Source: Nannocystis pusilla
Lineage (GTDB): Bacteria > Myxococcota_A > Polyangia > Nannocystales > Nannocystaceae
DNA length: 64,000 nt
NCBI RefSeq assembly: GCF_051105105.1
Contig: NZ_CP185339.1
Strand: one strand, 5' to 3'
In this document: positions 15,146 through 41,635 of the stretch, in pieces
How positions within the stretch are numbered: position 1 is the stretch's first letter
Layout: each line of letters begins with the position of its first letter
The notes under the pieces: generated by a model
What the model was told of the DNA's origin: nothing
Database searches by the model: none
What the model saw: only the letters and a program-made list of their open reading frames with translations
Made by a program: the position numbers and the translations under genes

Positions 15146-17192
15146 TCAGCTGATCTTCTCGCCCGGCAAGCTGCGCGCGTCGAGCTCGAGCACCGTGATC
15201 GCGTCGTCCTTCGCCCCCGACGCGAGGACCATGCCCTCGCTGACGCCGAACCGCATCTTGCGCGGCTTGAGGTTGGCGAACACCACCACGTGCTTGCCGA
15301 CCAACTGCTCGGGCGCGTACGAAGCCGCGATCCCGCTGAAGATGTTGCGCTGACCGAGCGGCCCGAGGTCGATCGTCAGCTGCAGCAGCTTGTCGGAGCC
15401 CTTCACCCGCGCGGCGGCCAGCACCTTGCCGACGCGGAGGTCGACCGCCGCGAACGCCTCGATGTTGGCCTCGGCCGCCAGCGGCTCGACCGTGTAGGCC
15501 GGCACTTCCGGGGCGGCCGGAGCCGGTTCGCCGATCGTCTCCTTGCTGGCCTCGACGATCGCCTCGATCTTCTTGGGGTCGATGCGCTCGGCCAGCGTCA
15601 CGTACGCCCCGACCTCCTGGCCCTCCGGCAGCGGCTCGACCGCGTTGACGAAGTCGAGCGGGGCCGGCAGGCGCAGGCCCTCCTCGATCGTCGCCGCCCA
15701 CTTCGGCAGCACCGGCTTCAAGATCGCCGCGATCACCTTGCTCGCCCACATGCCCGCGGTGCAGACCGCCCGCGCCCGCTCGGGGTCCTTGCCGACCACC
15801 TTCCACGGCTCCTGCGCCGTGATGTAAGCGTCGAATTCGCCGCCGATCTCGATCGCCAGGCGCAGCGCCTTGGCCGACTCGAAGTTGGCGTACAGCGCCG
15901 GCACCTGCGCCAGCGCCTCACGGGCCTTCGCCATCAGCGGCTCGGCGTCGGCGGGGATCGGGCCGAGCTTGCCCCCGAGCCGACCGACGAGGAACTTCTG
16001 ACAGCGGCTGGCGAGGTTGGCCGCCTTGTTGACCAGGTCGGTGTTCACGCGGCTGACGAAGTCGGCCAGGTCGAGGTCGATGTCGTCCTGCTCCGGCCCG
16101 AGCTTGGCCGCGAAGTAGTAGCGGAGGTAATCGGCCGGCAGGTGGTCGAGGTACGTGCGGGCGAGGATGAAGGTCCCGCGGGTCTTCGACATCTTCTCGC
16201 CGTTGACCGTCAGCCAGCCGTGCACGTTGATCCGCGTCGGCGTGGTGTAGCCGGCCGCGTGCAGCATCGCCGGCCAGAACAGCGCGTGGAAGTAGACGAT
16301 GTCCTTGCCGATGACGTGGACGATCTCGGTGTCCTGGCTCTGGTCGGCGCGCCAGTACGACGCGAACGAGGCGCGGCCCGGGTGCTCGTCGCACCACTTC
16401 TGGGTCGCGCCGATGTAGCCGACCGGCGCGTCGAACCACACGTAGAAGAACTTCTTGCCCTCGTAGCCGGGGATCGAGAAGCCGAAGTAAGGCGCGTCGC
16501 GGGAGATGTCCCAGTCGCGCAGGCCGTCGTCGACCCACCGCATCACGTAGTTGCGGACCGCCGACTGCAGCTTGGTCGAGTTCAGCCACTCGCGCAGGAA
16601 GCCCTCGAAGCGGCCGAGCGACACGAACAGGTGCTCCGAGTCGCGCAGCTCCGGCGTGGTCCCGCAGATCGCACAGTGCGGCTCCTTGAGCTCGCTCGGG
16701 TTGTACGTGTGGCCGCACTTCTCGCAGAACGTCGCCGTACTGGTCCGCCGAGGCGCAGTACGGGCAGGTTCCCTTGACGAAGCGGTCCGGCAGGAACATC
16801 TGGTCCTTGGGACAGTAGAGCTGCCGCGTGACCCGCTTCTCGATCTGCCCCGCCGCCTGCATCTTCTCGTAGATGAACTCGGCGTGCTTGCGGGTCTCGT
16901 CCGAGTGCGTGGTGTAGAAGATGTCGGACTCGATGCCGAAGTCGCTATAGACCTGCGCGTGCTCGGCGTGCATGCGCGCGACCAGGTCGGCCGGATCGAC
17001 GCCCTCACGCCGGGCGCGCAGCTCGATCGGCGTGCCGTGGGTGTCGACCGCCCACATGAAGATCACGTCCTCGCCGGCCAGCCGGCGCGCCCGCACGTGG
17101 ACGTCGGTCTGGATGTACTCGAGCAGGTGCCCGAGGTGGGGCGAACCGTTGGCGTACGGGAGGGCGGCGGTGACGAGGACGCGGCGCGGCAT
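15146..17192 (-). CDS. metG: methionine--tRNA ligase with a C-terminal tRNA-binding (EMAP/Trbp111-like) domain; frame disrupted near 16740
   Basis: N-terminal frame: PYANGSPHLGHLLEYIQTDVHVR... up to KGTCPYCASADQYGD. C-terminal frame: FCEKCGHTYNPSELKEPHCAICGTTPELRDSEHLFV...KMSKTRG...FAAVDLRVGKVLAAARV. The two ORFs 15918..17192 and 15146..17008 join at ...QYGD|FCEKCG with a 1-nt offset. Confidence 0.9.
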
Positions 17193-17260
17193 CGCGGGCG
17201 CCTATAGCACGCTTCGCCCGCTGCCGGCGAGGAAGGCCGCCCGAGCGGCCCGAAACGGCC

Positions 17261-26385: not shown

Positions 26386-28491
26386 TCAACCCGGCTCGAG
26401 GACGAACGGGTACGAGACGATGACCGAGCCGCCGCCTTCGGGCTTGGGGAAGGTCCAGCGCTTGACCGCCTGGGCGATGCAGGAGCCGACCGCCGGGTCC
26501 TTCATCGTGCTCTCCTGGACCACCGCGGTGGGCACCTTGCCGGTGCCGCCGATGGTGAACTGGACGGCGACGCGGCCCTTGGCGTTGGGGTCGCGGGCGA
26601 GGGCCTGGTTGTAGCAGTAGCGGACCTCGTTGATGTGCGCGCGGACGATGCGGCGGATGATGTCCTTGTCGAGCGCGCCCTGGACCTCGGCCTTGGCCTG
26701 ACGGACCGTCGGGACGCGGGTGCCGCGGCCGCCGAAGCCGGCGCCGGCGCCACGGCCGTAGCCGGAGCCCGTGCCGCCGCCGCCGCCCTTGCCGATGAGG
26801 CCCGTGTTGCCGAGGCCGATCGTGCCCTCGCCGGTGCCACCGCCGCCGCGGCCGGTGCCGACCAGGCCGAGGCCGCCGACGCCGTACGCCTCGCCGATCT
26901 CCGTGCCGGTGAGGCCGCCCCACACGTCCGCGTCGTCGTTGCCGACCGCGAACGCCCCGCCGTACGGCGAGGCGAGGAAGTGGCCGCTCTCGGCGCTCAT
27001 CACCCCGAGGATGCCGGCCTGGCGCGCGGCCATGTCGGGGTCGAAGTTACGGGCCATCTGCGGGATGGCGTCCTTCGGGCCCTTCATGGCGTAGAGGCCC
27101 GACTTGCTCTTCGAGGTGGGCTTGCCCATCTTGCCCTCCTCGCCCTTGTGGCGCTGACCGGTGCCGCCGGCCTCGTCGTCGGAGTTCTCCATGTCCTCCG
27201 GCGGCGGCTCCTCCTCCTCCGGCGGCTTGTCGGGCTGGTTGAGGTAACCGACGAAGCGGTTCTCTTCCATCATCTCGTCGAGGCTGAGGTTGCCGGCCTC
27301 GTTGGGGATCAGGTGCGTGAGCACCAGCAGGCTGCCGATGACCACGAACGACGCACCGTTGTAGATCCAGAACGGCTTGTCGGTCTCGCTGCCGCCCTTG
27401 ATCACCGCGCCCGGCGCGACCGAGTTCACGTAGAAGGTGACGTCCTGGTACTTGACCCGCGCCGTCGCTCCGGGCGGCAGCGGGAAGCTGAACGACGAGC
27501 CCTGCGAGCCCGCGCGGCCGGTCGCGACCAGCTGCTGCAGCGTGATCGTCTGGCCGTCGAAGGTGACCTCGCCGCTCATGTTCTGCGTGAAGTTGAGCGC
27601 GAACTCGTGGTCGCTGCCGCGGACCAGCGGAAAGCCGTTGGGCTCGGGCAGGCCGGCGGGCGGCACGTGGAACGACGCGCCGTGGCCCTCGCCGATCGTG
27701 AAGTTCTTGTTGACGTAGTCGCCGGTGCGGATGAGGCCCATGCTGAACGGCACGAGGCCCGCGATCGCCAGCAGCATGCCGATCGCCGCCAGACCGTTTC
27801 CGGGCGGGGTCGGGCGCGGCGTGCCCTGCTCGATCGACTCCTGGACCTTCTTGCCGTAGCCGGCCCAGTCCTGGTTCACGTCGCTGAAGAACACCCCCAC
27901 GCCCGCGACCAGCATCACGCCGCCGATGGCGAGGTAGAGCGGCGCCTGCGACTTGCGGTTCTTCAGCTGGCCGACGTGCTGCACGTCGAGCACCGTCGAG
28001 CCGTACATCGCCACGACCTCGGCCACCCGCGAGCCGCTCTGAACCTCGACCTCGCTGAGGTCGATCTGGATCGGCGCCCGCGTCGCCATCGGCGCCGCAG
28101 CGATCGGCGCCGCCGCGACCGCGGCCGCCGCCACGGCCACCGGCGCGGCCACCTGCGCCGGCGCCGGCGCAGCCGCGACCTGCTGCTTGGCGAAGCCGAC
28201 CTCGAGCCGGTACGGCCCGAAGTTCAGGGCGTCGCCGTCGTGCAGCACCGCGTTCTTGTCGATCCGCTGGCCGTTCAGCACGGTGCCCGCCGCGCTCCCG
28301 AGATCGATCACCCGCACCTCTTCGCCGGACACCTCGATCACGGCGTGCATGCGGGCCACGGCCTCGTCATCCAGACAGATGTGGCTACTCTTCAGTTTTC
28401 CGATCTTGATAACGTCTTGCGTCAGCGTCTGTGTATCGACGAGCTGATCGCCGTAAAACACTTTGATGGCGAGCGTCTTGGTCGTTGTCAT
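26386..28491 (-). CDS. FHA-domain membrane protein with a Gly-rich region and an AgmX/PglI-type (TonB-C-like) C-terminal domain
   Basis: N-terminal FHA (KIGKLKSSHICLDDEAVARMHAVIEV...GTVLNGQRI). A TM segment (LYLAIGGVMLVAGVGVFF), a G-rich low-complexity region, and the C-terminus IIRRIVRAHINEVRYCYNQAL...VAVQFTIGGTGKV...SVIVSYPFVL. Confidence 0.8.
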   Translation of the reverse strand: MTTTKTLAIKVFYGDQLVDTQTLTQDVIKIGKLKSSHICLDDEAVARMHAVIEVSGEEVRVIDLGSAAGTVLNGQRIDKNAVLHDGDALNFGPYRLEVGFAKQQVAAAPAPAQVAAPVAVAAAAVAAAPIAAAPMATRAPIQIDLSEVEVQSGSRVAEVVAMYGSTVLDVQHVGQLKNRKSQAPLYLAIGGVMLVAGVGVFFSDVNQDWAGYGKKVQESIEQGTPRPTPPGNGLAAIGMLLAIAGLVPFSMGLIRTGDYVNKNFTIGEGHGASFHVPPAGLPEPNGFPLVRGSDHEFALNFTQNMSGEVTFDGQTITLQQLVATGRAGSQGSSFSFPLPPGATARVKYQDVTFYVNSVAPGAVIKGGSETDKPFWIYNGASFVVIGSLLVLTHLIPNEAGNLSLDEMMEENRFVGYLNQPDKPPEEEEPPPEDMENSDDEAGGTGQRHKGEEGKMGKPTSKSKSGLYAMKGPKDAIPQMARNFDPDMAARQAGILGVMSAESGHFLASPYGGAFAVGNDDADVWGGLTGTEIGEAYGVGGLGLVGTGRGGGGTGEGTIGLGNTGLIGKGGGGGTGSGYGRGAGAGFGGRGTRVPTVRQAKAEVQGALDKDIIRRIVRAHINEVRYCYNQALARDPNAKGRVAVQFTIGGTGKVPTAVVQESTMKDPAVGSCIAQAVKRWTFPKPEGGGSVIVSYPFVLEPG

Positions 28492-28758
28492 CGTCCTTGC
28501 CCCGGTCGTGTGGCGCCTCGGACACGGCACTTTGGGGCTTGTTCCCGAGGCCCGCGAGCTTTTTTCGCGCCCGCGCGGGCCGTCTGCGCCGGCGCACGTC
28601 CGCGCGCGGACTCGGGCCCCGGGCGCGCCCCTGCGTCCGGCCACGCGTCCGCGGCTCGCGGCCGGCCGCGACGGCTTCGTGTTACCGTGACCCGAGGCGC
28701 CGTCCGTGCCCAGATCCGGGCGAGGCGCCTGCTGCCCCTCTCACGGCCTCGCCCCGGC

Positions 28759-29265
28759 ATGACCTCCGACCTCGCGCCTCCCTCACCTCCCGGCCCGAGC
28801 CCGATCCTCACCCTCCGGATCAGCGTCCGCGGCCTATATGACAGCTGGACGCACTGCCAGCGGCTGGCCGATTACATCGCGCGCTTCGTCGCCTCCGATC
28901 GTTTCGATCCCGAGCAGCTGACCACGCGCCTCTCGACCTATCTCAACGAGGTGCTCGAGTACGTATTCCGCGCCAGGCCGAGCGAGGGCGAGATCGTGGT
29001 CGAGGTCGGGCGCACCGACGAGCACGTGATCGCCGAGCTGACGATACCGACCGACGAGGCGCTCGCGCAGCGGCTGCGTGACGACCTCGGGCGGGTCGCG
29101 CCGGCGGACGCGCGGGCCCGCTACGAGGCCGAGTTCGAGTCGATGATCCTGCGCCCGCCGGCCGAGGTCGGGCTGCTCGAATTGGTCGCGCTCCACGGCG
29201 TCGAGCTCGCGCTGCGCGAGGGCGACGGTGCCGGCGTCATCGTCCTTACTGTCCCGCACGAGTGA
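28759..29265 (+). CDS. slr1658-superfamily regulator (GHKL/anti-sigma-kinase-like partner-switching component), copy 1
   Basis: YLNEVLEYVFRA is an N-box-like motif, and EGEIVVEVG follows. It is a paralogue of the 32858..33421 product. Confidence 0.6.
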   Translation: MTSDLAPPSPPGPSPILTLRISVRGLYDSWTHCQRLADYIARFVASDRFDPEQLTTRLSTYLNEVLEYVFRARPSEGEIVVEVGRTDEHVIAELTIPTDEALAQRLRDDLGRVAPADARARYEAEFESMILRPPAEVGLLELVALHGVELALREGDGAGVIVLTVPHE

Positions 29266-29277
29266 GCCGAGCTGGGT

Positions 29278-30450
29278 ATGGAGAACGAGCAACCGTTTTC
29301 GATCCGCTTCAGCGAGAACGACCAGGAGGTCGCGCTCGAGGGGACGCTGCGGCCCGCCGGCCCCGAGGCGTTCGCGCCGGTGCGGGCGCGCCTCGACCAC
29401 GCCGCCGACGCCGTGCGCGGCGTCCTCTACCTCAACTTCAAGCGCCTGCGTTACCTCAACCACACCGGCTTCCTCGAGCTCGCGCGCTTCATCGCCGCCT
29501 GCGCCGAGCGCCACCCGAGCCTCAAGCTCAAGCTCGTCGTCTCGAGCGTCGTCCCGTGGGCGCCGCTGCGGTTCGGCTTCCTCGGCGCGCAGTTCGGCAA
29601 CACCATCGTCGAGCAGTACGACAAGGCGTTTTACCCCGGCCAGGGCGTCATCGAGAACGACCAGCTCGTGCCGGTCCTGCGCACCCAGACCAACATCGTG
29701 TGGTCGCACGAGCGCGAGCTGCTGCGCCGCCACGGCCTCGGCAAGCGCATGCGGATCGCCGACATCTGCTGCGGGATCGGCGACTTCGCGGTGCTCGTCT
29801 ACAAGGAGTTCGAGCCCGCGTACATCGTCGGCGTCGACCACTCGCGGCCGTTCCTGCAGTACGCGCAGCAGATGGCCCGCGAGTTCGGCATCACCGACAT
29901 CGAGTATCAGTTCGGCGACGCGACCCACCTGTTCTTGCCGTCGAACAGCTTCGACTTCGTCACCTCGCGCCTGGCGCTGCAGATCTTCAACGACCCCTCG
30001 AGCATCCTCCGTGAGCTGGTGCGGATCTGCAAACCCGGCGGTCGGGTCTACCTGACGAATGAGATGACGGCGCACAACTACGGCTACCCGCGCCACGAGT
30101 CGGTCGCGTGGACCTACCAGCAGGCCGTGAAGATCGCCCAGAGCCTCGGCATGGACATGAACTTCGGGCCCAAGATGTTCTCGCAGCTCACCGACATGGG
30201 CCTCGAGGACGTGCGCATGGAGCAGATCCCGATCACCAACAACAACACCGCGATCGACGACTTCGCGCGGGTGATCGAGAGCTGGGAGGAGTACGTCACC
30301 GGCGAGCTGTCGACCGCCACGCAGCAGCCGCCGGAGGTGGTCGAGCGCCTGCGCATGGGCTTCCGCGATCACGTCTACGCGATCCGCAGCCGCCGCGGCT
30401 TCGCCACCTGGCCGATCTACGTCGCCTCCGGCCGCAAACCGGGGCGCTGA
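29278..30450 (+). CDS. STAS-like (slr1659-type antagonist) domain fused to a class I SAM-dependent methyltransferase
   Basis: The N-terminal ~120 aa align with the standalone 33418..33792 protein (EGTLRP...LNFKRLRYLNHTGF...LKLVVSSVVPWA). The C-terminus has the MTase motif I (IADICCGIGDFAV) and post-I motifs (GGRVYLTNE). Confidence 0.75.
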   Translation: MENEQPFSIRFSENDQEVALEGTLRPAGPEAFAPVRARLDHAADAVRGVLYLNFKRLRYLNHTGFLELARFIAACAERHPSLKLKLVVSSVVPWAPLRFGFLGAQFGNTIVEQYDKAFYPGQGVIENDQLVPVLRTQTNIVWSHERELLRRHGLGKRMRIADICCGIGDFAVLVYKEFEPAYIVGVDHSRPFLQYAQQMAREFGITDIEYQFGDATHLFLPSNSFDFVTSRLALQIFNDPSSILRELVRICKPGGRVYLTNEMTAHNYGYPRHESVAWTYQQAVKIAQSLGMDMNFGPKMFSQLTDMGLEDVRMEQIPITNNNTAIDDFARVIESWEEYVTGELSTATQQPPEVVERLRMGFRDHVYAIRSRRGFATWPIYVASGRKPGR

Positions 30451-30471
30451 CGGCCCTCGCCGCTCGACCGC

Positions 30472-32834
30472 ATGGCCACCACGGGCTCAAGGTTCCGCAC
30501 CAAGTTCGTCCTCGTCGCCGGGGTCGGGCTGGTGATCGGGCTGACGCTCGCGGCGCTGGCCTCGCTGCAGGGCATCCGCGTCCTCGGCGGCGACGCGTCG
30601 GAGGAGATCCGCAAGGGCCTCGAGCGGGCCAGCCGCGAGTACCTCACCAACCACATCGAGGACACCGCGCAGCGCGTCGAATTCTTGCGCGGGCGGGCGC
30701 GGGCCGAGGCTCGGCGTGCTCGCGGCCGTCACCCAGACGCTCATCGACGAGCAGGCCGACCTCGCGCCGCTGACCGCCGCCGCCGCCGCCGCCGGGCCGC
30801 TGCGCGACGCCCTCGTCTACGACCCGCGCGGCGACTGGTCGCAGACGGAGGCCGGCGAGCCGTCGGCGGTGGCCGTGTGGGGCTACCTGCACGCGCCGGC
30901 CGATCCGAATCGACCTGGCCTTCGGGACATCAAGCCCGAGGTCCGCGCCGCGGTCGATCAGACCGCCCTGCTCGACCTGCTGCTGCCCGCGCTGCTGCAG
31001 TACGGGGCCGAGAAGCAGGCCATGTACTTCATCGGCCCCGAGGGCGCCGAGTACCTGCGGATCGCCCCCTACGCCGACGCGGCCGGCCACGCCGACCAGC
31101 TCTATCCCGGCCACAACAAGAGCCCGTTCTGGAGCTTCTACTTCCCCGGCATCGTCGACGGCTGGCGGCGCTGGCTCGCCGATCCCGCGCGCATGCGCGA
31201 CCCGGCGGCGCAGGTCACGGGCACCGCGCCGTACACCGACGCAGGCGGCAGCGGGGCCATCATGACCATGTTCCAGCCGCTGTGGGACGCCTCGCGCGCG
31301 CGCTTCGCCGGGGCCGTCGGCGTCGACGTCACGCTCGGTCAGCTGATCCGCTACGTCCAGGATCTCGAGCTCGCCGGCTCGGGCTTCGCCTTCCTCGCCC
31401 AGGAGAACGGCAACGTGTTCGCCGTCAACGCCGACGGCCAGGAGATCCTCGGCCTGCAGCAGGCCAGCGGCTCCGCGGGCGCCGGCGTCGACATCTTCCA
31501 GCAGTTCCTGCACCAGTCGCGCGACCCGGCGATCCGGGCGCTCGCGCTGCCCGGCGGCGACGTCGTCGACTACCGCGACCCGGTCGCGATCGGCGGCGAG
31601 GACTACGTCGTCGTGCTCAAGCGGCTCGATCCGTTCAACGTCTGGTCGGGTTCGGCCGACATCGTGCCGGAGCGCTGGACCCTCGGCTTCGTCGTGCCTG
31701 CCGCCGAGATCTACGCCTCGCTGCACAAGGCGCAGGACACCATCGCCGCCAGCAGCCGCGGGATCCTCAGCAGCCAGGTCGTCATCACCCTCGTCGCGCT
31801 CGCGGTGGTGATGTTCGGGATCCTCCTGGTCTCGCGGCGCATGACCGGCGCGCTGGTCGACCTCGCCGCGGGCGCCGGCAAGATCGCGCAGAAGGACTAC
31901 GACGTGCGGGTCAACGTCCGCAGCGACGACGAGTTCGGCGCGCTCGGCCGCGCCTTCGACCAGATGGCCGCCGAGATCCGCGCGTATACGCACGACCTCG
32001 AGCGCCTGGTCGAGCAACGCACCGCCGAGCTGCAGCGGGCCTCCCGCGAGATCATGGCGCTCAACGAGCGGCTCAAGCAGGAGAACCTGCGCCTCGGCGC
32101 CGAGCTCGACGTCGCCCGCCGGCTGCAGCTCATGGTGCTGCCGCCGGAGCGCGAGCTGGCCGAGATCGAGGGCCTGGAACGTCGCCGGCTACATGCGCCC
32201 CGCGGACGAGGTCGGTGGCGACTACTACGACGTCCTGCGCGCCGGCGACGGCGTCAAGATCGGCATCGGCAACGTCACCGGCCACGGCCTCGAGAGCGGC
32301 GTGCTGATGCTGATGATCCAGACGGCCGTGCGCACCCTGCAGGCCGCCGAGGAGCGCGACGCGGAGCGCTTCCTCAACATCGTCAACAAGGTCCTCTACC
32401 AGAACATCCAGCGCGTCGGCCTCGACCGCACCGCGACGCTGGTGCTCCTCGACTACGCGCAGGGCGTGCTCCGCCTCACCGGGCAGCACGAGGAGGCGGT
32501 GGTGGTCCGGCGGGGCGGCTCGATCGAGCGCATCGACACGGTCGACCTCGGCATGCCTGTGGGGCTCGAGGTCGACATCGCCGCGTTCATCGCCCGCACC
32601 GAGCTGCGCCTGTCGCCGGGCGATGTCGTCGTCCTGTACACTGACGGCATAACCGAGGCGGAGGACATCCACGGCGAGCAGTACGGCATCGACCGCCTGT
32701 GCGAGGTCGTGCGCCGGGTCCACGAGCGGCCGGCGGCGGAGATCAAGCTGGCGATCATCGACAACGTCATGCGCTTCATCGGCGCGCAGAAGGTCTTCGA
32801 CGACATCACGACGGTGGTGATCAAGCGGCGCTGA
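30472..32834 (+). CDS. membrane sensor Ser/Thr phosphatase: TM-Cache(periplasmic)-TM-HAMP-coiled coil-PP2C/SpoIIE (RsbU-like); two frame disruptions
   Basis: TM1 FVLVAGVGLVIGLTLAALA, TM2 VVITLVALAVVMFGILLV, then HAMP, then the SpoIIE domain MRPADEVGGDYYDV...GNVTGHGLESG...LYTDGITE. Three track ORFs (30472, 30716, 32193) concatenate, with 1-nt offsets near 30690 and 32185. Confidence 0.8.
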
Positions 32835-32857
32835 GGCGCCCGAGGCGGACGGAGAGT

Positions 32858-33421
32858 ATGGACGGCATCATCGGCGAGTACAAAGAGCCCACCGACGCTG
32901 GACCGCGCGTCATGCTGACGTTTTACCCCGGGGCGTTCCCGGTCAAGTGGAACCAGTGCAGCGTGGCGGCCGACTTCTTCGCCGAGTACTTCGTCGACGT
33001 CGGCGAGGGCGGGCTCACCGAGGAGGCCGAGCGGCGCGACTTCGTCGGCAGCGTCGGCTACGTGCTCAACGAGCTGATCGAGAATGCGGTCAAGTTCTGC
33101 GCCGGCGGCACCGTCGTCATCGACGCGGGCGTCGAGGCGGGCGAGTTCGTGGTCGTCGTCAGCAACCAGGTCTGCGGCGACGCGGTCGACGGCCTGCGGC
33201 TCAAGTTCGCCGAACTGCTCGACGGCGATCCCGCCGAGCTCCTGATGCAGCGGGTCGAGGACAACGCCGCCAACCCCGACCTCACGACCTCGGGCCTGGG
33301 CTTTCTCACCATGCTGTCGGACTACAAGGCCCGGCTCGGCTGGCGCTTCGACCCCGCCCCTGGCAATCCTGACAACGCGCTCCTCAAGACCGCCGCCCGG
33401 CTACAGGTGAAATCGTCATGA
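32858..33421 (+). CDS. slr1658-superfamily regulator (GHKL-like), copy 2
   Basis: VGYVLNELIENAVKFCAGGTVVIDAG is an HATPase N-box-like motif. The start was taken inside ORF 32699..33421. Confidence 0.65.
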   Translation: MDGIIGEYKEPTDAGPRVMLTFYPGAFPVKWNQCSVAADFFAEYFVDVGEGGLTEEAERRDFVGSVGYVLNELIENAVKFCAGGTVVIDAGVEAGEFVVVVSNQVCGDAVDGLRLKFAELLDGDPAELLMQRVEDNAANPDLTTSGLGFLTMLSDYKARLGWRFDPAPGNPDNALLKTAARLQVKSS

Positions 33422-33792
33422 CGGACACAACTACGCGACCCTCCGGGTCGGACACCGACATCAAAGGCCCCGGCTATCGCGTGTGGTTCGACGCGCCCGC
33501 GAGCACGGTCCACTTCGAGGGCGTGCTCCGCCTCAGCACCAGCGAGTACAAGCCGATCGAGGACCTGCTCGACCGCGTCCTGCTGGAAAGCCCCGCGCTC
33601 GCCCTGCGCATGACCGAGCTGCAGTTCCTCAACAGCTCGGGCATCAACATGCTCTACAAGTTCGCCATCGCCGCGCGCAAGAAGGGCGAGACCGAGATCA
33701 AGGTCCACGGCTCGTCGACCATCCCGTGGCAGGGCAAGTCGCTGCCCAACCTCAAGAAGTTCCTGCCGACGATCGTCATCGCGCTCGACTGA
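33418..33792 (+). CDS. slr1659-superfamily regulator (STAS/anti-sigma-antagonist-like)
   Basis: 124 aa, translationally coupled to the previous gene through an ATGA overlap. It aligns with the N-terminus of the 29278 product. Confidence 0.65.
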   Translation: MTDTTTRPSGSDTDIKGPGYRVWFDAPASTVHFEGVLRLSTSEYKPIEDLLDRVLLESPALALRMTELQFLNSSGINMLYKFAIAARKKGETEIKVHGSSTIPWQGKSLPNLKKFLPTIVIALD

Positions 33793-33805
33793 GCCGGCCG
33801 CCCGC

Positions 33806-35032
33806 ATGCTCACGGATGACCCGCGCTGGCGGCGAGCCCTCGCCGACCCCGACGCCGCGGCCGAGCTCCTGGCCGACCCGGCCGCGCGCGCCGAGTTCAT
33901 GGCCGCCGTCGCCGCGCTGCAGGCCGAGCACGACGACCTGGTGCTGCTGCACGACTCGACGCTCGAGCACGCCAACGAGATCGAGGAGCAGCTGGCCGTC
34001 AAGATCGAGCAGGTCGAGGCGCTGGTGGTCGAGCTCGAGCTGCGCAACACCTTCATCCGCCAGGTGTTCGGCCGCCACGTCACCGACGAGGTCGTCAACA
34101 CCTTGCTCGCCTCGCCGGAGGGCCGCCAGCTCGGCGGCGAGCGGCGCACCCTGACGATCCTGATCTCCGACCTGCGCGGCTTCTCCACCCTCTGCGAGGG
34201 CCTGGGCCCCGAGCAGGTGGTGGCGATCCTCAACATCTACCTCGGCGCCATGGCCGACGTGATCGGCGAGTACCGCGGCTCGATCAACGAGTTCATCGGC
34301 GACGCCATCCTCGCGGTGTTCGGCGCCCCGGTGCCGCAGGAGGACCACCCCGAGCGCGCCGTCGCCTGCGCGATCGCCATGCAGCGGGCGATGGGCCGCG
34401 TCAACGCCGAGCTGGCCGAGCACGGCCTGCCCGCGCTCGAGATGGGCATCGGCGTCCACACCGGCGAGGTCGTGGTCGGCAACATCGGCTCGAACCGCCG
34501 CGCCAAGTACGGCGTGGTCGGCCGCCACGTCAACCTGACGTCGCGCATCGAGAGCTACACCGTCGGCGGCCAGGTGTTGATCTCCGAGTCGGCCGCGCGG
34601 GCCCTCGGCGACCGCCTCCGCACCCGCGGCTGCTTCGAGGTCCGGCCCAAGGGCGTGCGCGAGCCGATCCGGATCCACAACGTCACCGGCGTCGACGGCC
34701 CGTTCGCCATCCACATGATCGAAGAGGCCGCCGCGTGGCGGGTCCTGGCCGAGCCGCAGCCGCTCGTGTTCACCGCGCTCGAGGGCAAGGACACCGGCGG
34801 CCAGGAGTTCCCGGCGCTGCTCGTTGCCCACGACGAGCGCCACAACGCCGAGCTGCAGGTCGGCGCCCCGCTGCCGCTGCGCGCCGACCTCAAGCTCGTG
34901 CTCGCCGCCCTGCCCGGCGTCGACGCCTACGCCAAGGTCGTCGCCGCCGGCCCGGGCCGCGCGACGGTCCGCTTCACCGCCCTGCCGCGCGCGCTGCAAG
35001 AGCTGCTCGACTCCCTGCCCGCGCGCGAGTGA
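33806..35032 (+). CDS. class III adenylate/guanylate cyclase (CHD domain) with an N-terminal coiled-coil and a C-terminal regulatory region
   Basis: LTILISDLRGFSTLCEGLGPEQVVAILNIYLGAMADVIGEYRGSINEFIGDAILAVFGAP...GIGVHTGEVVVGNIGSNRRAKYGVVGRHVNLTSRIES. Confidence 0.85.
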   Translation: MLTDDPRWRRALADPDAAAELLADPAARAEFMAAVAALQAEHDDLVLLHDSTLEHANEIEEQLAVKIEQVEALVVELELRNTFIRQVFGRHVTDEVVNTLLASPEGRQLGGERRTLTILISDLRGFSTLCEGLGPEQVVAILNIYLGAMADVIGEYRGSINEFIGDAILAVFGAPVPQEDHPERAVACAIAMQRAMGRVNAELAEHGLPALEMGIGVHTGEVVVGNIGSNRRAKYGVVGRHVNLTSRIESYTVGGQVLISESAARALGDRLRTRGCFEVRPKGVREPIRIHNVTGVDGPFAIHMIEEAAAWRVLAEPQPLVFTALEGKDTGGQEFPALLVAHDERHNAELQVGAPLPLRADLKLVLAALPGVDAYAKVVAAGPGRATVRFTALPRALQELLDSLPARE

Positions 35033-35124
35033 GGCGCCAGGACAGGCTCGCGGAGGGCGTGGGGAGGCGCCCGGCCGAGCCGGTGCCGCGTGGGAGGTCG
35101 GGCGCGCCGAAGTGACCGGGCCGT

Positions 35125-35195
35125 CCGGGCATGTCCCGATCGACATGTCCTCTCTGACATGCCGATTGGAGCATGTCCCATGGGACATGACCGTG
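35125..35195. repeat. REP-like cluster between convergent genes
   Basis: gggcatgtcccgatcgacatgtcctctctgacatgccgattggagcatgtcccatgggacatgacc. Confidence 0.7.
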
Positions 35196-35215
35196 CAGCC
35201 AGCCCGCATCAAGTG

Positions 35216-36728
35216 TCAGTCGCGGCGGGCCAGCAGCGTCGCGTGCATGTCGCTGCCGTCGATGCTCTCGTCGAGCGGCTCGTCGATGTCGATGATCACG
35301 CTCTCGCCGCCCGAGCTCGTCGGCGGCGGGATCGGCGGGACGGAGCGCGGCGCGACCGAACCCGGCTGGGCCTCGACGGGGGCCGTCCGCGACCCGCGGC
35401 CCTCGACGCCGGCGAAGCGGGCCGCGAGGGTGCGCACGAACGCGCCCATCCACGGCTTCATCGAACGTCAGCTCCTCCTCGATCAGGTCGCTGGTGATCT
35501 TGGTGAGCGTGGCGTCCTCGACCACCAGCACGCTGGCGGTCCGGCGCGAGGCGGCGAAGATCAACGTCTCGCCGAACACGTCGCCCGGCCCGAGCCAGCG
35601 CAGCGACACGTGGTGCCCGGCCTCGAGCTTGTAGACCTCGAGCCGGCCGGCCAGCACGATGTAGGCCGCGTCGCCGATCTCACCCTCGCGGATCACGTGG
35701 TCGCCGGCGGCGAAGCGGACCGTCTGGAAGCTGCCGCTGCCGCGCAGCAGGCGGACGATGTCGGCCTGCAGCGCCGCCACGCTCGGATAGCGATCGTCGG
35801 GGTCGCGGCGCAGCGCCCGCGTCACGATGCGCACCAGCTCGCGCGGGAACGGCACCGCGACGTGGCTATCGGGCGACGCGAACTTCGCCTCGCGCGCGAG
35901 GATCAGCGCGTCCATCGCCGTGCGCGCCTGGTACGGCGGCTTCCCGACCATCATCTCGTAGAGCAGCGCGCCCATCGAGAACACGTCGGCGCGCTCGTCG
36001 AGCGGATGGCTGTTGGCCTGCTCCGGCGACATGTACGACGGCGTGCCGAACACCAGCCCGTCGGTCTCCGACGGCGGCAGCGGCGGCAGGGCGTCGCGGA
36101 CCCAATGCGCCTCGTCTTCGCTGGACCGGAGCGGCAGGATCTGGGCCCCGCCCCAGTCCATCAAATAGACCTGGCCGTAGGCGCCGACCATCACGTTGGC
36201 CGACTTGATGTCGCAGTGGATCACCCCGCGGCTGTGGGCGAACGACAGCGCGTCGCACACCTTGACGAAGATCTCGAGGCGGTGGAACAGCCGCTCGTGG
36301 TCGGTCGCCGGCTCGCCGCCGATCAGCGCCTTCAGGCTCTGGCCCTCGACCAGCTTCATCGTGAAGTAGAGCTGGCCCTGCTCGTCGCGCCCGAGCTCGT
36401 GGATCGGCACGATGTTGGGGTGGTCGAGCTGACCGGTCACCTGGGCCTCGCGCAAGAACCCGTGCACGAGCATCAGGTGGTCGTAGGTCTTGGCGTGCAT
36501 GACCTTGGCGGCCATCCGCCGCTGCAGCACCTCGTCGAACGCGAGCCGCACCGAGCCCATCCCGCCGCGCGCCAGCTCGTCGCCGAACGACAGCCGCGGC
36601 ACTTGGTCCGGCAGCGCCGCGCGGATGAGGGCCTCGAGCCGCTCCTCATAGGAGAGCGGGGAGTCGCGGTCGAACAGCCGCTCGAGCGCGGCGCTGGGGG
36701 ACGAGCCTCCGGGGCGGCGACCTGGCAT
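35216..36728 (-). CDS. Ser/Thr protein kinase fused to a cyclic-nucleotide-binding (CAP-family effector) domain; C-terminal frame switch near 35460
   Basis: Kinase motifs VIHCDIKSANVMV, DWGGA, GTPSYMSPEQ. The cNMP domain reads FAAGDHVIREGEIGDAAYIVLAGRLEVYK...GPGDVFGE. The Arg/Pro-rich tail of ORF 34974..36878 is implausible, while the small ORF 35216..35461 supplies a protein-like C-terminus. Confidence 0.8.
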
Positions 36729-36780
36729 GCGGGGCCACGATACAATGCCGCCTCGGCGGTGGTACACCGGGGCGGCCGGC

Positions 36781-37935
36781 ATGGACCTGCGCACCGCCCT
36801 CGTCACGCTCCGCTTGCGCCACCCGTTCGGCCTGTCGCGCGGCACCGTGAGCGAACTGCCGAGCTTGCTCGTGCGCATCGACCCGGGCGACCCGGACGGT
36901 GCCGCAGCGGATGGCCCCGATCGCCGCGGCCTCGGCGAGGCCGCGCCCGTGCGCTACCTCGGTCAGTCGGCGATCGCCGCCGCGCCTCTGGCCACCGCGA
37001 TCGCGGCCGAGCTGTCCCCCGAGATCCTCGTCGACCCGCGCGCGATCGCGGCCGCCGGTCCGCGCATGCGCGAGCTCGCCCCCGACCACTCCGCGGCCCG
37101 CTGCGCCGTCGACACCGCCCTGTGGGACGCGGCCGCGCGCGCCCGCGGCCGCCCGCTGGCCGAGCTGCTGGCCGACCCGGACGTGCTCGATCGGGCAGGT
37201 CTCGATCGCCATGTCCTTTCGGCCACCTCGGGGGCCACGGTCACCTCTTACACGATCGCGCTCGACGAGCTCCCGGCGATGGCGGCCCGCGCGGCCGCGG
37301 CCGCGCACCTCCCGGTGCTCAAGATCAAGCTCGGCAAAAATCGCGATTTCGACCGCGCGGCCGTGCGTGCGATCGCCGCCGCCGCCCCGAACGCCCGCCT
37401 GCGGGTCGACGCCAACGGCGGCTGGACCCCGGACGACGTGCGCGCTCTGCTCCCGCTGCTGGTCGACCTCGGGGTCGAGCAGCTCGAGCAGCCGCTGCCT
37501 GCGGGTCGGCCCGACCTTCTCGCGGCGCTCGCGCGCGACTGTCCCCTGCCGATCTACGCCGACGAGGACGTACAGGGGCCGGACGACGTGGCGGCGCTGC
37601 GGGGTCGGGTCGCGGGGATCAACGTCAAGCTGATGAAGTGCGGCGGGATCTCGCCGGCCCTGGCGACGATCGCCGCGGCCCGGGACAGCGGCCTGCGGGT
37701 GCTCGTCGGCTGCATGATCGAGACCCGCGTCGGGCTCGCCGCGGGCGCCGCCCTGGCCCGCCTCGCCGACGAGGCCGACCTCGACGCCCACATGCTCACG
37801 CGGGCCGACCCGATGCCGCCGGGGAGCCAAGAGCGGCTCGCGCCCGACCTCCCGCGGCTTTGCGGCCCCGGCCTCGGCGTCCCGCCGGGGGCGTTGCCCG
37901 CGGACGGCGACCCGGGGCCCGGGCGCGTGGCATAA
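36781..37935 (+). CDS. enolase-superfamily enzyme, mandelate racemase/muconate lactonizing family (dipeptide epimerase/OSBS-like)
   Basis: KIKLG, VDANGGW, LEQP, ADE and KLMKCGG are the catalytic K-x-K, D, E, D, K positions. Confidence 0.8.
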   Translation: MDLRTALVTLRLRHPFGLSRGTVSELPSLLVRIDPGDPDGAAADGPDRRGLGEAAPVRYLGQSAIAAAPLATAIAAELSPEILVDPRAIAAAGPRMRELAPDHSAARCAVDTALWDAAARARGRPLAELLADPDVLDRAGLDRHVLSATSGATVTSYTIALDELPAMAARAAAAAHLPVLKIKLGKNRDFDRAAVRAIAAAAPNARLRVDANGGWTPDDVRALLPLLVDLGVEQLEQPLPAGRPDLLAALARDCPLPIYADEDVQGPDDVAALRGRVAGINVKLMKCGGISPALATIAAARDSGLRVLVGCMIETRVGLAAGAALARLADEADLDAHMLTRADPMPPGSQERLAPDLPRLCGPGLGVPPGALPADGDPGPGRVA

Positions 37936-37948
37936 TCCACGCTCCGCC

Positions 37949-40900
37949 TTGAAGCCCGACGAGCCCCAGGCCCGCGCCTCGCTGCCGGTGACGCCACCTG
38001 TCCCTGAGGACATCCTTCCGCGTCCGCTCGGGCGCTACGAGCTGGTGCGTCGGGTCGGCTCCGGCAGCATGGGCGTCGTCTATGCCGCGCTCGATCGCGA
38101 CAGCGGCCGCACCATCGCGCTCAAGACCCTGCACCAGCTCGACCCGGGCGCGCTGTTCCGCCTCAAGAACGAGTTCCGCAGCGCCGCCGGCCTGTCGCAC
38201 CCGAACCTCGTCAGCCTCCACCAGCTCGTCTCGCACGACGACGAGTGGTTCATCACCATGGAGTTCGTCGACGGCGTCAGCTTCGTCGACCATGTCCGTC
38301 AGGGCATGTCCGAAAAGCCAGGCGCCGCGCCGCCGCCCGAGCGCCTGCGCCCCGCCCTGCTGCAGCTGGCCGCCGGCGTCAGCGCCCTGCACGCCGCCGG
38401 CAAGCTGCACCGCGACCTCAAGTCGTCGAACGTGCTGGTCACCGCCGACGGCCGCGTCGTCATCCTCGACTTCGGCCTCGCCGCCGACAACGTCGCCGAG
38501 GGCGGCGAGGACGGGCTGCTCGGCACGCCGGCGACGATGGCGCCGGAGCAGGCCGCCGGCAACCCGGCCTCGCCCGCGAGCGACTGGTACGCGATCGGCG
38601 TCATGCTCTACGAGGCGCTCACCGGCCGTCTGCCGTTCACCGGCCCGCCGCTCGCCATCCTCCACGCCAAGCAGCACGAGGACCCGGCCCCGCCGCAGGC
38701 GCTCGTGCCCAACGTCGATCCCGAGCTGGCGACCCTGTGCGTGGGCCTGCTGCAGCGCGACCCGGCCGCGCGGCTCGGCGGCGCCGACATCCGCGAGGCC
38801 CTCGGCGAGGCCCCGCTCGGCCCGACCGAGTCCGGCGCGCGCTTCGTCGGCCGCGACGACCTGCTGTCGGCGATGCGCGACGCCTTCCAGCTCGCGCTCG
38901 CCGGCTCGCCGGTGTGCGTGTACGTCCGCGGCCGCTCCGGCATCGGCAAGACCGCGCTCATCGATCGCTTCATCGCCGAGCTGCGCCGCAACGACCGCGC
39001 CTTCGTCCTCCAGGGCCGCTGCTACGAGCGCGAGAGCGTGCCGTACAAGGCCTTCGACAGCGTCCTCGACGCGCTCGCGCAGCACCTCCGCCACCTCCCG
39101 CAGGAGGAGGCCGCGGCCCTGCTGCCGCGCGAGATCCACGAGCTCACGCGGCTGTTCCCCGTCCTCGCGCGCGCCCCCGTGGTCGCCGATCTGCCGCAGC
39201 GCAACTTCGTCGCCCCCGACCCGCAAGAGGCGCGGCGTCGGGCCTTCCGCGGGCTCAAGGAGCTGCTGGCGCGGATCGCCGATCGCCGCCCGCTGGTGCT
39301 GCGGATCGCCGACCTGCAGTGGGGCGACGAGGACAGCGCGCGCCTGCTCGCCGAGCTGCTGTCGCCGCCCGATCCGCCGGCGATGCTCTTCATCGGTTCG
39401 TACCGCATCGACGAGGACGACGCGCCGATGCTCCGCGAGCTGCGGCGGCTCGGCGCGCGGCCCGAGCTCAAGGCGCTGGTGCGCGACCTGCTGGTCGAGC
39501 CGCTCTCGCCCGATCAGGCCGAGGAGCTCGCGCTCGCCCGGCTCGGCCGCGACAGCGACAGCGCCCGCGCCGAGGCGCGCCGGATCGCCGCCGAGTCGGG
39601 CGGCAACCCGCTGTTCGTCGAGGAGCTCGCGCGCCACATCGCCGGTCACCGCGGCGCCGCGCCGGCCGAGGTCTCGCTCGACGCGGTCGTGCGCACCCGC
39701 CTCGCCAACCTGCGCGCCGCGGGTCGCAGCCTGCTCGAGATCGTCGCCGTCGCCGGGCGACCGATCCCGCCGAGCCTCGCGTTCACGGCCTCGGGCGTCA
39801 CCGATCGCTCGGTCCTCGGCGAGCTGCAGGCGCAGCACCTGCTGCGCACGCTGGCCTCGCGCAGCGGCGACACCGTCGAGTGCTACCACGACCGGATCCG
39901 CGACACCGTGCTGGCGCAGCTCGGCGGCGACCGCCTGGCGCAGCTGCACCGCACCCTCGCCGACGCCCTCGCGCAGTCGGCCGACGACCCCGAGCTGCTG
40001 GCGCACCACCTCCACGCCGCCGGCGCCTTGAAGGAGGCGCACGCCGCCGCCGTCGCCGCCGCCGAGCGGGCCGCCGCCGCGCTCGCGTTCTACCGCGCCG
40101 CTCAACTGTACGGCCGCGCCCTCGCGTGGGCGCCCGACCTGCCGGACGACGAGCGCCGCGCCCTCCTGCGCCGCCGCGCCGACGCCCTCGCGCTGGCGGG
40201 TCGCAGCGCCGAGGCGGCCCCGGTCTACGCCAGCGCCGCCGAGGGCGCCTCGGCCGCCGAATCACTCGAGCTGCGCCGCCGCGCCGGCGAGCAGTTCCTC
40301 GTCAGCGGCAACATCGACCAGGGCGTGCGGATGCTGCGCCCCGCGCTCGTCGAGGTCGACCTCGGCTACCCGGCCACCCCCGGCCGCGCCAACATGTCGA
40401 TCATCACCCGCTCGACGCAGCTCAGCCTGCGCGGGCTCGGCTTCGCCGCGGTGCGCGAGGAGCAGGTCCCGCCGGCCGACCTGCTGCGCCTCGACGTGTG
40501 CCTGTCGGCGGCCGTCGGCCTCGCCTTCGTCGATCCGATCCGGGGCTACAGCTTCTACCAGCGCGGCCTCCTCCTGGCCCTTCAGACAGGTGAGCCGCAG
40601 CGGATCGCCCGGGCGCTCGCCGGCGTCGGCGCCATGATCATGAGCCGCGGCACCGCCAACGCCGTCGGCCGCGGCACCACCCTGCTCAAGGAGGCGCGCC
40701 GCCTCGCCGAACAGATCTCGGAGCCGCGCCTCATCGGCCTGTGCGAGATCGTCGACGCCATCGCCGCCGTCTCGCTCGGCCGCTGGCGCCGCGCGCTCGA
40801 GCACTGCGAGCAGGGCGCCCAGATCCTGCTCGACCGCTGCGTCGGCGTCGGCTGGGAGCTCGACCTCGCCCGCATGAGCACGATGCGCGGCCTGTTCATG

Positions 40901-41635
40901 CTCGGCGAGCTGGCCGAGCTCGGCCACCGCGCCCACGCCTGGCTGCGCGAGTCGGAGGACGCCGGCGATCTGTGCGGCGAGGTCTGGTCGGCGCTCTACA
41001 GCGCCTACGCGCTGCTCGGCGCCGACGACATCACCAGCGCCCGCGACCGCGTGCGCGGGGCGATGCGCCGCTGGTCGAAGGACGGCTTCCACTTCCAGCA
41101 CATGCTCGCGCTGATCCTCGAGACCTCGTGCGACCTGTACCAAGGGCAAGGTGGCTCGGCCTGGCAGCGCCTGGCCGAGAACTGGGTCGCCGTCGAGAAC
41201 TCGTACATCCTCGGCTGGCAGGGCCAGCGGATCCTCTTCCTCCACGCGCGGGGCCTCGCCGCCATCGCGGCCGCGCGCGAGCAGCCGCACAACGCCGGCG
41301 TCCTGCTCGCCGCCGCCGAACGCGACGCCGCCCAGCTCGAGGAGGACCGCGCGCTGCGCCACGACTCCGTCGCCATGGCCGCGCTGATCCGGGCCGGCAT
41401 CGCCGCGCAGAACGGCGACATCCAGCAGGCGCTCGTCCGCCTCGAGGCCGCCGCCGCCAGCTTCGACACCGCCGACATGCCGGTCCACGCCGCCTGCGCC
41501 CGTCGTCGCCGCGGCGAGCTGTTGGGCCCCAGCGGCGCCACCTTGATCGCCCAGGCCGATCAGTACCTCGCCTCGCGGGCGATCCTCCGCCCTGCGCAGT
41601 GGAGCGCGATGTACAACGGCAGCGCGCCCACCTGA
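37949..41635 (+). CDS. Ser/Thr protein kinase fused to an AAA+/STAND ATPase and C-terminal TPR-like repeats
   Basis: Kinase GRYELVRRVGSGSMGVVYAA...HRDLKSSNVLV...DFGLA. Then a Walker A (GRSGIGKTAL) and a long helical repeat region. Confidence 0.85.
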   Translation: MKPDEPQARASLPVTPPVPEDILPRPLGRYELVRRVGSGSMGVVYAALDRDSGRTIALKTLHQLDPGALFRLKNEFRSAAGLSHPNLVSLHQLVSHDDEWFITMEFVDGVSFVDHVRQGMSEKPGAAPPPERLRPALLQLAAGVSALHAAGKLHRDLKSSNVLVTADGRVVILDFGLAADNVAEGGEDGLLGTPATMAPEQAAGNPASPASDWYAIGVMLYEALTGRLPFTGPPLAILHAKQHEDPAPPQALVPNVDPELATLCVGLLQRDPAARLGGADIREALGEAPLGPTESGARFVGRDDLLSAMRDAFQLALAGSPVCVYVRGRSGIGKTALIDRFIAELRRNDRAFVLQGRCYERESVPYKAFDSVLDALAQHLRHLPQEEAAALLPREIHELTRLFPVLARAPVVADLPQRNFVAPDPQEARRRAFRGLKELLARIADRRPLVLRIADLQWGDEDSARLLAELLSPPDPPAMLFIGSYRIDEDDAPMLRELRRLGARPELKALVRDLLVEPLSPDQAEELALARLGRDSDSARAEARRIAAESGGNPLFVEELARHIAGHRGAAPAEVSLDAVVRTRLANLRAAGRSLLEIVAVAGRPIPPSLAFTASGVTDRSVLGELQAQHLLRTLASRSGDTVECYHDRIRDTVLAQLGGDRLAQLHRTLADALAQSADDPELLAHHLHAAGALKEAHAAAVAAAERAAAALAFYRAAQLYGRALAWAPDLPDDERRALLRRRADALALAGRSAEAAPVYASAAEGASAAESLELRRRAGEQFLVSGNIDQGVRMLRPALVEVDLGYPATPGRANMSIITRSTQLSLRGLGFAAVREEQVPPADLLRLDVCLSAAVGLAFVDPIRGYSFYQRGLLLALQTGEPQRIARALAGVGAMIMSRGTANAVGRGTTLLKEARRLAEQISEPRLIGLCEIVDAIAAVSLGRWRRALEHCEQGAQILLDRCVGVGWELDLARMSTMRGLFMLGELAELGHRAHAWLRESEDAGDLCGEVWSALYSAYALLGADDITSARDRVRGAMRRWSKDGFHFQHMLALILETSCDLYQGQGGSAWQRLAENWVAVENSYILGWQGQRILFLHARGLAAIAAAREQPHNAGVLLAAAERDAAQLEEDRALRHDSVAMAALIRAGIAAQNGDIQQALVRLEAAAASFDTADMPVHAACARRRRGELLGPSGATLIAQADQYLASRAILRPAQWSAMYNGSAPT

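Follow-up and report, generated by a model that had tools for sequence, protein, structure and literature searches.

A seven-gene signalling cluster in Nannocystis pusilla raises the question of which enzyme its regulatory proteins control, and whether the arrangement is a new one. The cluster occupies positions 28,759 to 36,728 of a 64,000-nucleotide stretch of contig NZ_CP185339.1 (assembly GCF_051105105.1), hereafter the window, which has a G + C content of ~71%. The original prediction, made from the letters of the sequence, described six co-oriented and closely spaced genes with an ATGA coupling and a Ser/Thr kinase gene converging on them, and this layout was confirmed. Genes 1 to 6, on the + strand, are separated by gaps of 12–23 nt, except that genes 4 and 5 overlap by ATGA, and gene 7 lies on the opposite strand. 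The coding signal, measured as third-position G + C, was on the + strand from 28,759 to 35,032 and on the − strand from ~35,200 to 36,728, and no terminator-like sites were predicted on the + strand within the cluster. Our preferred reading, in which we have moderate confidence, is that genes 1 to 5 constitute, in Nannocystis, a conserved partner-switching cassette of the Bgr type, the output of which is wired to the nucleotide cyclase encoded by gene 6 and the protein kinase encoded by gene 7.

The putative partner-switching core and its relatives

Gene 4 (32,858–33,421, + strand) encodes a putative BgrW/SiaB-like GHKL serine kinase of 187 amino acids and gene 5 (33,418–33,792, + strand) a predicted BgrV/SiaC-like STAS phosphoprotein of 124 amino acids. 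An exact protein look-up revealed that the products of genes 4, 5 and 6 are identical to XWX07085.1, XWX07086.1 and XWX07087.1, which were named by PGAP as ‘slr1658 superfamily regulator’, ‘slr1659 superfamily regulator’ and ‘adenylate/guanylate cyclase domain-containing protein’ respectively. Hidden Markov model (HMM) searches supported the slr1658 and slr1659 labels that the original prediction had also given to genes 4 and 5, with 141 bits for gene 4 against NF047703 and 126 bits for gene 5 against NF047705 (cutoff 100 in both cases). When the gene 4 and gene 5 families were searched as profiles against the sequences of the PDB, just marginal matches were obtained, to the N-box for gene 4 (E ~0.2) and to antagonists for gene 5 (E 0.02–0.3), and fold comparison was therefore used. 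The predicted structure of gene 4 matched SiaB and RsbW and contained a Bergerat fold, and that of gene 5 matched SiaC and the anti-sigma antagonists and contained a STAS fold; SiaB and SiaC of the crystal complex 6KKO ranked first or close to first among the structural matches of the two proteins. The GHKL-like and STAS-like folds proposed for this pair are therefore borne out by the models. Among 84 sequences, the N-box (E72/E75-N76) and the G2 box (S145-G-L-G148) of gene 4 were invariant. Gene 5 Ser73 (codon 33,634–33,636) was present in 84/84 sequences and aligned with SpoIIAA Ser58 and SiaC Thr68 at the N-terminus of helix 2; this residue is the predicted phospho-site.

Gene 3 (30,472–32,834, + strand) appears to encode a BgrU/SiaA-like sensor phosphatase, although in the window it runs through three reading frames (30,472–30,707, then to 32,177, then to 32,834). 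It had been described as a Cache-HAMP-PP2C gene. All of these domains were found, with dCache_1 (weak) and HAMP in the second frame and SpoIIE (128–130 bits) in the third, but no single open reading frame (ORF) contained them. Once the frames had been repaired as described below, the protein had the layout transmembrane (TM) segment, dCache, TM segment, HAMP, coiled coil and PP2C, with two TM segments in total. The PP2C motifs were invariant in 80 orthologues, as were D583, D586, D724, D776 and D777, and gene 3 belongs to the PPM/PP2C family by its SpoIIE domain and metal-binding Asp residues, one of which (D600) is read as Asn in the window. The sequence and the predicted fold together identify this dCache-HAMP-PP2C sensor as the putative point at which the signal enters. 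Because the domains of genes 3 to 5 hold and Ser73 is invariant at the position of SpoIIAA Ser58 and SiaC Thr68, a PP2C-kinase-STAS partner-switch logic appears well founded for these genes. By analogy with the Bgr and Sia systems, we infer that gene 4 phosphorylates gene 5 at Ser73 and that gene 3 dephosphorylates it.

Homologues of these five genes were found on pSymB of S. meliloti 1021. Between 458,865 bp and 465,606 bp, this replicon encodes, in order, a GGDEF/EAL protein, a 172-amino acid protein, a 392-amino acid methyltransferase, a 786-amino acid SpoIIE phosphatase, a 187-amino acid ‘ATP-binding protein’ and a 112-amino acid protein, of which the last five were collinear with genes 1 to 5 and showed 30, 47.5, 45, 36 and 46% identity to them respectively. 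According to PMC8457831, PMC7647112 and PMC13438883, a partner-switching system (PSS) modulates the diguanylate cyclase BgrR in S. meliloti, BgrU and BgrW being a phosphatase/kinase couple that acts on the STAS protein BgrV, and BgrV being a repressor of BgrR; the five-component name BgrSTUWV is given in PMC8457831. BgrSTUWV and Nannocystis genes 1 to 5 are alike in consisting of five homologous genes and, as proposed for Nannocystis, in directing a kinase/phosphatase couple at a STAS protein that controls an adjacent nucleotide cyclase. The target BgrR is a GGDEF-EAL protein, the gene of which heads the operon and adjoins the cassette; in 2019, Baena et al. reportedly described bgrRSTUWV as a hexacistronic operon starting with SMb20447. 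Nannocystis differs from this arrangement in lacking a GGDEF gene, as the gene upstream of gene 1 encodes a divergent FHA-domain protein, and in having a class III Cya2-like cyclase gene 3′ of gene 5 followed by a convergent gene for a Ser/Thr kinase that binds cyclic nucleotides (cNMP).

Two further groups of switches were compared with the cluster. SiaABCD of Pseudomonas aeruginosa has the same order of PP2C sensor, kinase, STAS-like phosphoprotein and cyclase, and SiaC and gene 5 share the phospho-site motif LN-(S/T)-S where helix 2 begins. However, SiaC belongs to the DUF1987 family, to which gene 5 had no match, and the scores of gene 3 against SiaA_equivalog (67 and 40 bits, cutoff 700) and of gene 4 against SiaB_fam (21.9 bits, cutoff 85) were below those required for membership. 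SiaA also lacks a Cache domain, the Sia system has no pseudokinase/methyltransferase pair, and its output is the GGDEF enzyme SiaD, activated by unphosphorylated SiaC, whereas the cyclase of the cluster is of class III. The sign of control differs among the homologous systems, as BgrV represses its cyclase and SiaC activates. The RsbU-RsbV-RsbW and SpoIIE-SpoIIAA-SpoIIAB switches resemble the cluster in their folds, in the position of the phospho-serine and in their PP2C input, but no sigma factor is encoded in or near the cassette and the target would be an enzyme rather than a transcription factor.

The distribution of the cassette was analysed in a collection with one genome per species, in which relatives of gene 2 were encoded at ~450 loci; the gene 2 family was also widespread among public protein data. 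The five-gene cassette was present in 72 of the 81 non-duplicate loci examined, being collinear in 54 and having genes 4 and 5 fused in 18, the latter from Sorangium and Polyangium. The remaining loci comprised four without a full-length gene 3 in place and five that were on truncated contigs or had a gene 1 under the BLAST threshold. Hosts of the cassette were Myxococcota, many rhizobia and other Alphaproteobacteria, some Gammaproteobacteria and Chthoniobacter. The original prediction held that a two-pair version carrying a methyltransferase had not been described; given the equation of the pSymB cluster with bgrSTUWV, it is in fact an already described system, and as the cassette occurs widely and a counterpart of it has been studied, we have largely withdrawn the claim of novelty. 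What is new here is the output, the place of the diguanylate cyclase being held by a probable guanylyl cyclase along with a kinase that binds cNMP; the degenerate first pair, described below, has also been characterised more sharply. With regard to conservation across Myxococcota and cyanobacteria, a question raised at the same time, the five-gene cassette was conserved, Myxococcota included, but the cyanobacterium found had a three-gene form and the cyclase and kinase were lineage-specific.

Two variant forms were observed. In Sorangium, Polyangium and Byssovorax, the fusion of genes 4 and 5 is a 305-amino acid kinase-STAS protein that is followed by a stand-alone SpoIIE phosphatase (L002, L028, L031–L040, L043, L051, L054, L060, L067, L075 and L077). 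In So ce56, a HATPase_c_2/DUF6272 gene, a small gene and a gene encoding a PAS-GAF-STAS protein lie past the SpoIIE phosphatase. The cyanobacterial form, from Leptolyngbya sp. PCC 7375 (L087, 4344 bp–7591 bp), is a minimal trio of a gene encoding 120 amino acids, a dCache-HAMP-SpoIIE gene and a DUF6272/slr1658 gene, with neither the pseudokinase/methyltransferase pair nor an adjoining class III cyclase.

Proposed linkage of the cassette to a cyclase and a kinase

Gene 6 (33,806–35,032, + strand) encodes a soluble Cya2-like class III nucleotidyl cyclase of 408 amino acids, with a helical stalk N-terminal to the catalytic domain and a further domain of ~100 amino acids at the C-terminus. Domain searches agreed with the earlier assignments of Guanylate_cyc to gene 6 (E 3e-26), of Pkinase and cNMP_binding to gene 7 and of an S-adenosyl methionine (SAM) methyltransferase to gene 2. 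Gene 6 matched Cya2 of Synechocystis (PDB 2W01) with an E value of 9e-69. All catalytic residues were present, namely the metal-binding Asp122 and Asp166 and the transition-state residues Asn243 and Arg247, and the specificity pair Glu162/Gly236 was that of Cya2, which makes gene 6 a class III cyclase of the Cya2 type by its residues. It differs from Cya2 in being soluble, in its short helical N-terminus, in its extra C-terminal domain and in having Ser246 in place of a Tyr. The specificity residues indicate that the product is probably cyclic GMP (cGMP). Signalling by cGMP is rare in bacteria.

Gene 7 (36,728 down to 35,216, − strand) encodes, after repair, a 503-amino acid Ser/Thr protein kinase with a C-terminal cNMP-binding domain. 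The Pkinase match (E 6e-38, 131 bits) covered a complete kinase domain, and in the cNMP_binding domain (E 4.5e-17, 62 bits) the phosphate-binding cassette reads ‘FGE...RRTAS’. With a kinase and a cNMP domain in one chain and an intact cassette, the protein is by its sequence a predicted cNMP-dependent protein kinase. The best PDB matches of its cNMP domain were the cNMP domains of PKG, although these scores are inflated by multi-domain targets. Sites selective for cGMP typically contain the Thr seen in ‘RTA’, which is no more than suggestive. If true, a guanylyl cyclase encoded beside a Ser/Thr kinase that binds cNMP would lend itself to direct testing of the two as a pair.

According to the preferred reading, the membrane sensor encoded by gene 3, with its periplasmic dCache, HAMP and PP2C domains, would dephosphorylate gene 5 at Ser73 and the GHKL kinase encoded by gene 4 would re-phosphorylate it, the phospho-state of gene 5 setting its choice of binding partner. 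Gene 6 would take the place held by BgrR in S. meliloti, with its helical N-terminal stalk as a possible docking site, and the cyclic nucleotide made by gene 6 would be read by the cNMP-binding domain of gene 7. Among nucleotide cyclases, the GGDEF enzymes SiaD, HsbD and BgrR are established targets of partner switching. We know of no case with a class III cyclase, and full-text literature searches for partner-switch control of such a cyclase found none. The position of gene 6 directly 3′ of gene 5 in all Nannocystis relatives, in an order like that of siaABCD, was counted in favour of a link between cassette and cyclase.

Neighbouring genes were compared across the loci. Upstream of the cassette, in 49 loci, we found extra SpoIIE phosphatases (12), GGDEF-EAL proteins (9), class III cyclases (4) and Ser/Thr kinases (3). 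The gene 3′ of gene 5 was variable across 51 loci and encoded a cyclase in just three; a conserved downstream output gene was rejected, as no dominant family emerged from this 51-locus census. We read these counts (GGDEF-EAL 9/49 and class III 4/49 upstream, class III 3/51 downstream) as an enrichment of nucleotide cyclases among the neighbours of the cassette. The cyclase and convergent kinase 3′ of gene 5 were confined to the Nannocystis clade and are a lineage-specific addition, outside the conserved unit. Since the same type of cassette lies beside GGDEF-EAL genes in rhizobia, adenylyl-type class III cyclases in other lineages and the Cya2-like cyclase in Nannocystis, it is suggested to be a portable controller of second-messenger synthesis. 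The cassette-linked cyclases elsewhere had Lys/Thr, Lys/Asp or Asp/Gly specificity pairs. Those of the adenylyl type with Lys/Thr were encoded divergently upstream of gene 1 (L004/L041, L023, L024 and L029; Lys/Asp in L042), in an alphaproteobacterial metagenome-assembled genome (MAG), several Myxococcota MAGs and a Chthoniobacteraceae MAG, and their N-termini showed weak similarity to the gene 6 stalk (E 1e-5 to 2e-4).

Variability of this kind would also be expected if the cassette and the cyclase and kinase genes were merely neighbours, the real output being the gene 2 methyltransferase or an unlinked target and the cyclase being under the control of domains at its own N- and C-termini. Besides the kinase and phosphatase, the methyltransferase is, moreover, the sole enzymatic output to be conserved. 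We nevertheless regard this as rather unlikely. The adjacency of gene 5, cyclase and kinase was kept in all Nannocystis relatives and outlasts the loss of gene 3 from its place in three of them (L012–L014). In two other Myxococcota (L025 and L026), an orthologous cyclase, with an N-terminal stalk that is 55–57% identical, is linked to the cassette at a different position, upstream of gene 1. Genes 5 and 6 are only 13 nt apart with no terminator predicted between them, and the characterised homologue Bgr is reported to control an adjacent nucleotide cyclase.

Several points weigh against a Bgr-type cassette wired to the gene 6 cyclase. We take the pSymB cluster to be bgrSTUWV from its gene order and from the component types given in secondary sources, so that the mapping of the gene names is tentative. 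In gene 4, the Asp of the G1 box is replaced by Asn103 in 81/84 sequences; the S. meliloti homologue, which is reported to control the phosphorylation of BgrV, carries the same Asn. In Cya2 a Tyr raises guanylyl cyclase activity, and Ser246 occupies its position in gene 6; it is therefore possible that gene 6 accepts ATP or has dual specificity. Most cassettes have no adjacent cyclase and must therefore have an output of their own, possibly the methyltransferase. Finally, control of the cyclase by gene 5 is plausible from the gene neighbourhood only, and the same applies to gating of gene 7 by a cyclic nucleotide.

Interrupted reading frames and the GACGTC motif

Genes 3 and 7 are both broken in the window as given, and the breaks were analysed by aligning the window with seven related Nannocystis genomes (eight sequences). 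The coding frame of gene 3, followed by third-position G + C, shifts at ~30,708 and ~32,178. The literal ORF at 30,472–32,307 gave zero domain matches in the domain search and was rejected as the phosphatase gene. In gene 7, the ORF that extends down to 34,974 is out of frame past the cNMP domain, where it encodes arginine-rich nonsense, and a plausible C-terminus is present in another frame. The repaired kinase gene ends at 35,216, which is 183 nt short of the cyclase gene, and the two do not overlap.

The alignment revealed three +1 insertions, at 30,708, 32,178 and 35,464, which were found in the window only and were absent from the seven relatives. The insertion at 30,708 changes GAGCTC to GAGGCTC, and those at 32,178 and 35,464 change GACGTC to GAACGTC. 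After repair, gene 3 is intact and encodes 786 amino acids, as does its intact orthologue in N. pusilla GCA_020073745.1; gene 7 is also intact, with 503 amino acids compared to 504 in the intact orthologue of the same genome. A further difference is the codon AAC at 32,271–32,273 (+ strand), which places Asn600 in the PP2C motif GDVTGHG of gene 3. This position is Asp in 79/80 family members and Asn in the window alone, and the site is GACGTC in all close relatives; the substitution is probably an artefact in which GACGTC was read as AACGTC.

Such changes were not limited to the cluster. Out of the 13–14 GACGTC sites of the two closest genomes, seven were altered in the window, five to AACGTC and two to GAACGTC, and always on the same strand. 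Over the whole window AACGTC occurred 44 times and its reverse complement GACGTT seven times, and the density of GACGTC was half that of the relatives. Examples of altered sites are at 16,727, 24,570, 32,177, 32,271, 32,763, 34,679, 35,463, 35,563 and 38,489. The GAACGTC at 16,727 coincides with a frame jump that splits metG, the methionyl-tRNA synthetase (MetRS) gene (15,146–17,200, − strand), and deletion of one A at this position restored a full-length MetRS with the HIGH and KMSKT motifs. Two broader explanations were considered and set aside. A blanket conversion of GACGTC to GAACGTC is only partly right, as three GAACGTC sites are shared with the relatives and a G-to-A change of the first base was seen more often. 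A genome-wide GAGCTC error motif as the source of the 30,708 insertion was unsupported, as 2–4 of 15–17 such sites were altered, which is approximately background.

Because the change is strand-biased at a palindrome and breaks the essential metG, the three breaks and Asn600 are almost certainly assembly errors, genes 3 and 7 presumably being intact in the organism. They are best explained by a systematic long-read base-calling or polishing error, GACGTC perhaps being a methylated site. The insertion at 30,708 weighs against this explanation, since it is not at a GACGTC motif and its designation as an artefact follows from its absence from the relatives only. Taken as given, three +1 insertions and a catalytic-site substitution inside 5 kb, all missing from seven relatives, could also mean that the frameshifts and Asp600Asn are real, that the phosphatase and kinase genes are pseudogenes and that the island is decaying in this strain. 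We consider this very unlikely, given that the changes are motif-specific and on a single strand, that the excess of AACGTC over GACGTT extends over the whole window, that the same type of insertion breaks an essential gene which is restored by removing one A, and that mutation of a palindromic site on one strand only is not expected from a biological process. An assembly with systematic GACGTC errors yields false pseudogenes and a false active-site mutation, which is a practical warning.

The degenerate first pair and the flanking genes

Gene 1 (28,759–29,265, + strand) encodes a BgrS-like protein of 168 amino acids, a putative degenerate GHKL protein of the slr1658 type, and gene 2 (29,278–30,450, + strand) a BgrT-like protein of 390 amino acids with an N-terminal slr1659/STAS-like domain (approximately residues 1–110) and a class I SAM methyltransferase. 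The slr1658- and slr1659-type labels that these two genes had received were upheld as remote homology but not as family membership. Gene 1 scored 36 bits (E 4e-9) against NF047703 and the N-terminal domain of gene 2 scored 43 bits against NF047705, both under the cutoff of 100. In contrast, hhalign related the gene 1 family to the gene 4 family (98.2%, E 6e-14) and the gene 2 N-terminal domain to the gene 5 family (98.1%, E 9e-14). The gene 1 family has kept the motif ‘LNELLE’ but neither the Mg-binding Asn nor the G2 box, and gene 1 is a probable pseudokinase or binding subunit. In the STAS-like domain of gene 2, the phospho-site position is N, H or F instead of serine in 86/87 sequences. A phosphorylatable Ser or Thr, expected by the original prediction in the STAS-like domains, is thus present in gene 5 and missing from gene 2.

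The methyltransferase of gene 2 matched Methyltransf_11, Methyltransf_25 and Methyltransf_31 at E values of 1e-18 to 1e-19. Its SAM motifs are intact, ‘DICCGIGD’ being invariant, and the protein shows 47–55% identity across phyla. The nearest solved relatives were small-molecule or peptide methyltransferases, which are without diagnostic value.

That the cluster contains two equivalent duplicated kinase/antagonist pairs, both under PP2C-controlled phosphorylation and jointly controlling the cyclase and the methyltransferase, as first proposed, is most improbable despite the 98% hhalign relationship between the pairs, since gene 1 lacks the ATP- and Mg-binding residues, the gene 2 domain lacks the phospho-site, and the divergence of gene 1 from gene 4 and of the gene 2 domain from gene 5 is ancient and conserved across phyla. 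On the simplest view, gene 1 would pair with the STAS-like domain of gene 2 in a second complex, the binding of which does not depend on phosphorylation. This pair is conserved universally and, within a Bgr-type cassette, probably provides either a second output or an adaptation branch; competition from gene 4 or gene 5 may occur. That a cassette of hundreds of species has kept a catalytically dead paralogue of the kinase, together with a non-phosphorylatable STAS domain on a methyltransferase, is a puzzle. No explanation of the roles of BgrS and BgrT was found in the literature, and literature searches on slr1658/slr1659, on DUF6272 and on STAS-methyltransferase-Cache-HAMP combinations found no functional study.

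A partial parallel is the HenR/All4160 module of Anabaena, in which a STAS domain is attached to a biosynthetic enzyme under a PP2C/kinase switch (bioRxiv 10.64898/2026.04.08.717354). The STAS domain of All4160 is itself phosphorylated, whereas that of gene 2 lacks a phospho-site. In its fullest form, which we put forward tentatively, the proposal is of a complete bacterial cGMP cascade, from an extracytoplasmic signal through a Bgr-type switch and a Cya2-like guanylyl cyclase to cGMP and a one-chain PKG-like kinase, with BgrS and BgrT forming a methylation-based second output or adaptation branch in ~450 species.

Divergently from gene 1, an FHA-domain protein is encoded at 26,386–28,644 (− strand) and is syntenic in all Nannocystis relatives. 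As FHA domains bind phospho-threonine, this protein may be part of the same Ser/Thr signalling neighbourhood. On the other side of the cluster, a mandelate racemase/enolase-superfamily gene (36,727–37,935, + strand) is followed after 13 nt by a gene for a Ser/Thr kinase with an AAA_16 ATPase domain (37,949–41,635, + strand). In N. pusilla GCA_020073745.1 these two genes are called as a single fusion of 1621 amino acids (L001, 17,374 bp onward), and several indels distinguish the window from this genome at the junction between the racemase and AAA_16 kinase genes.

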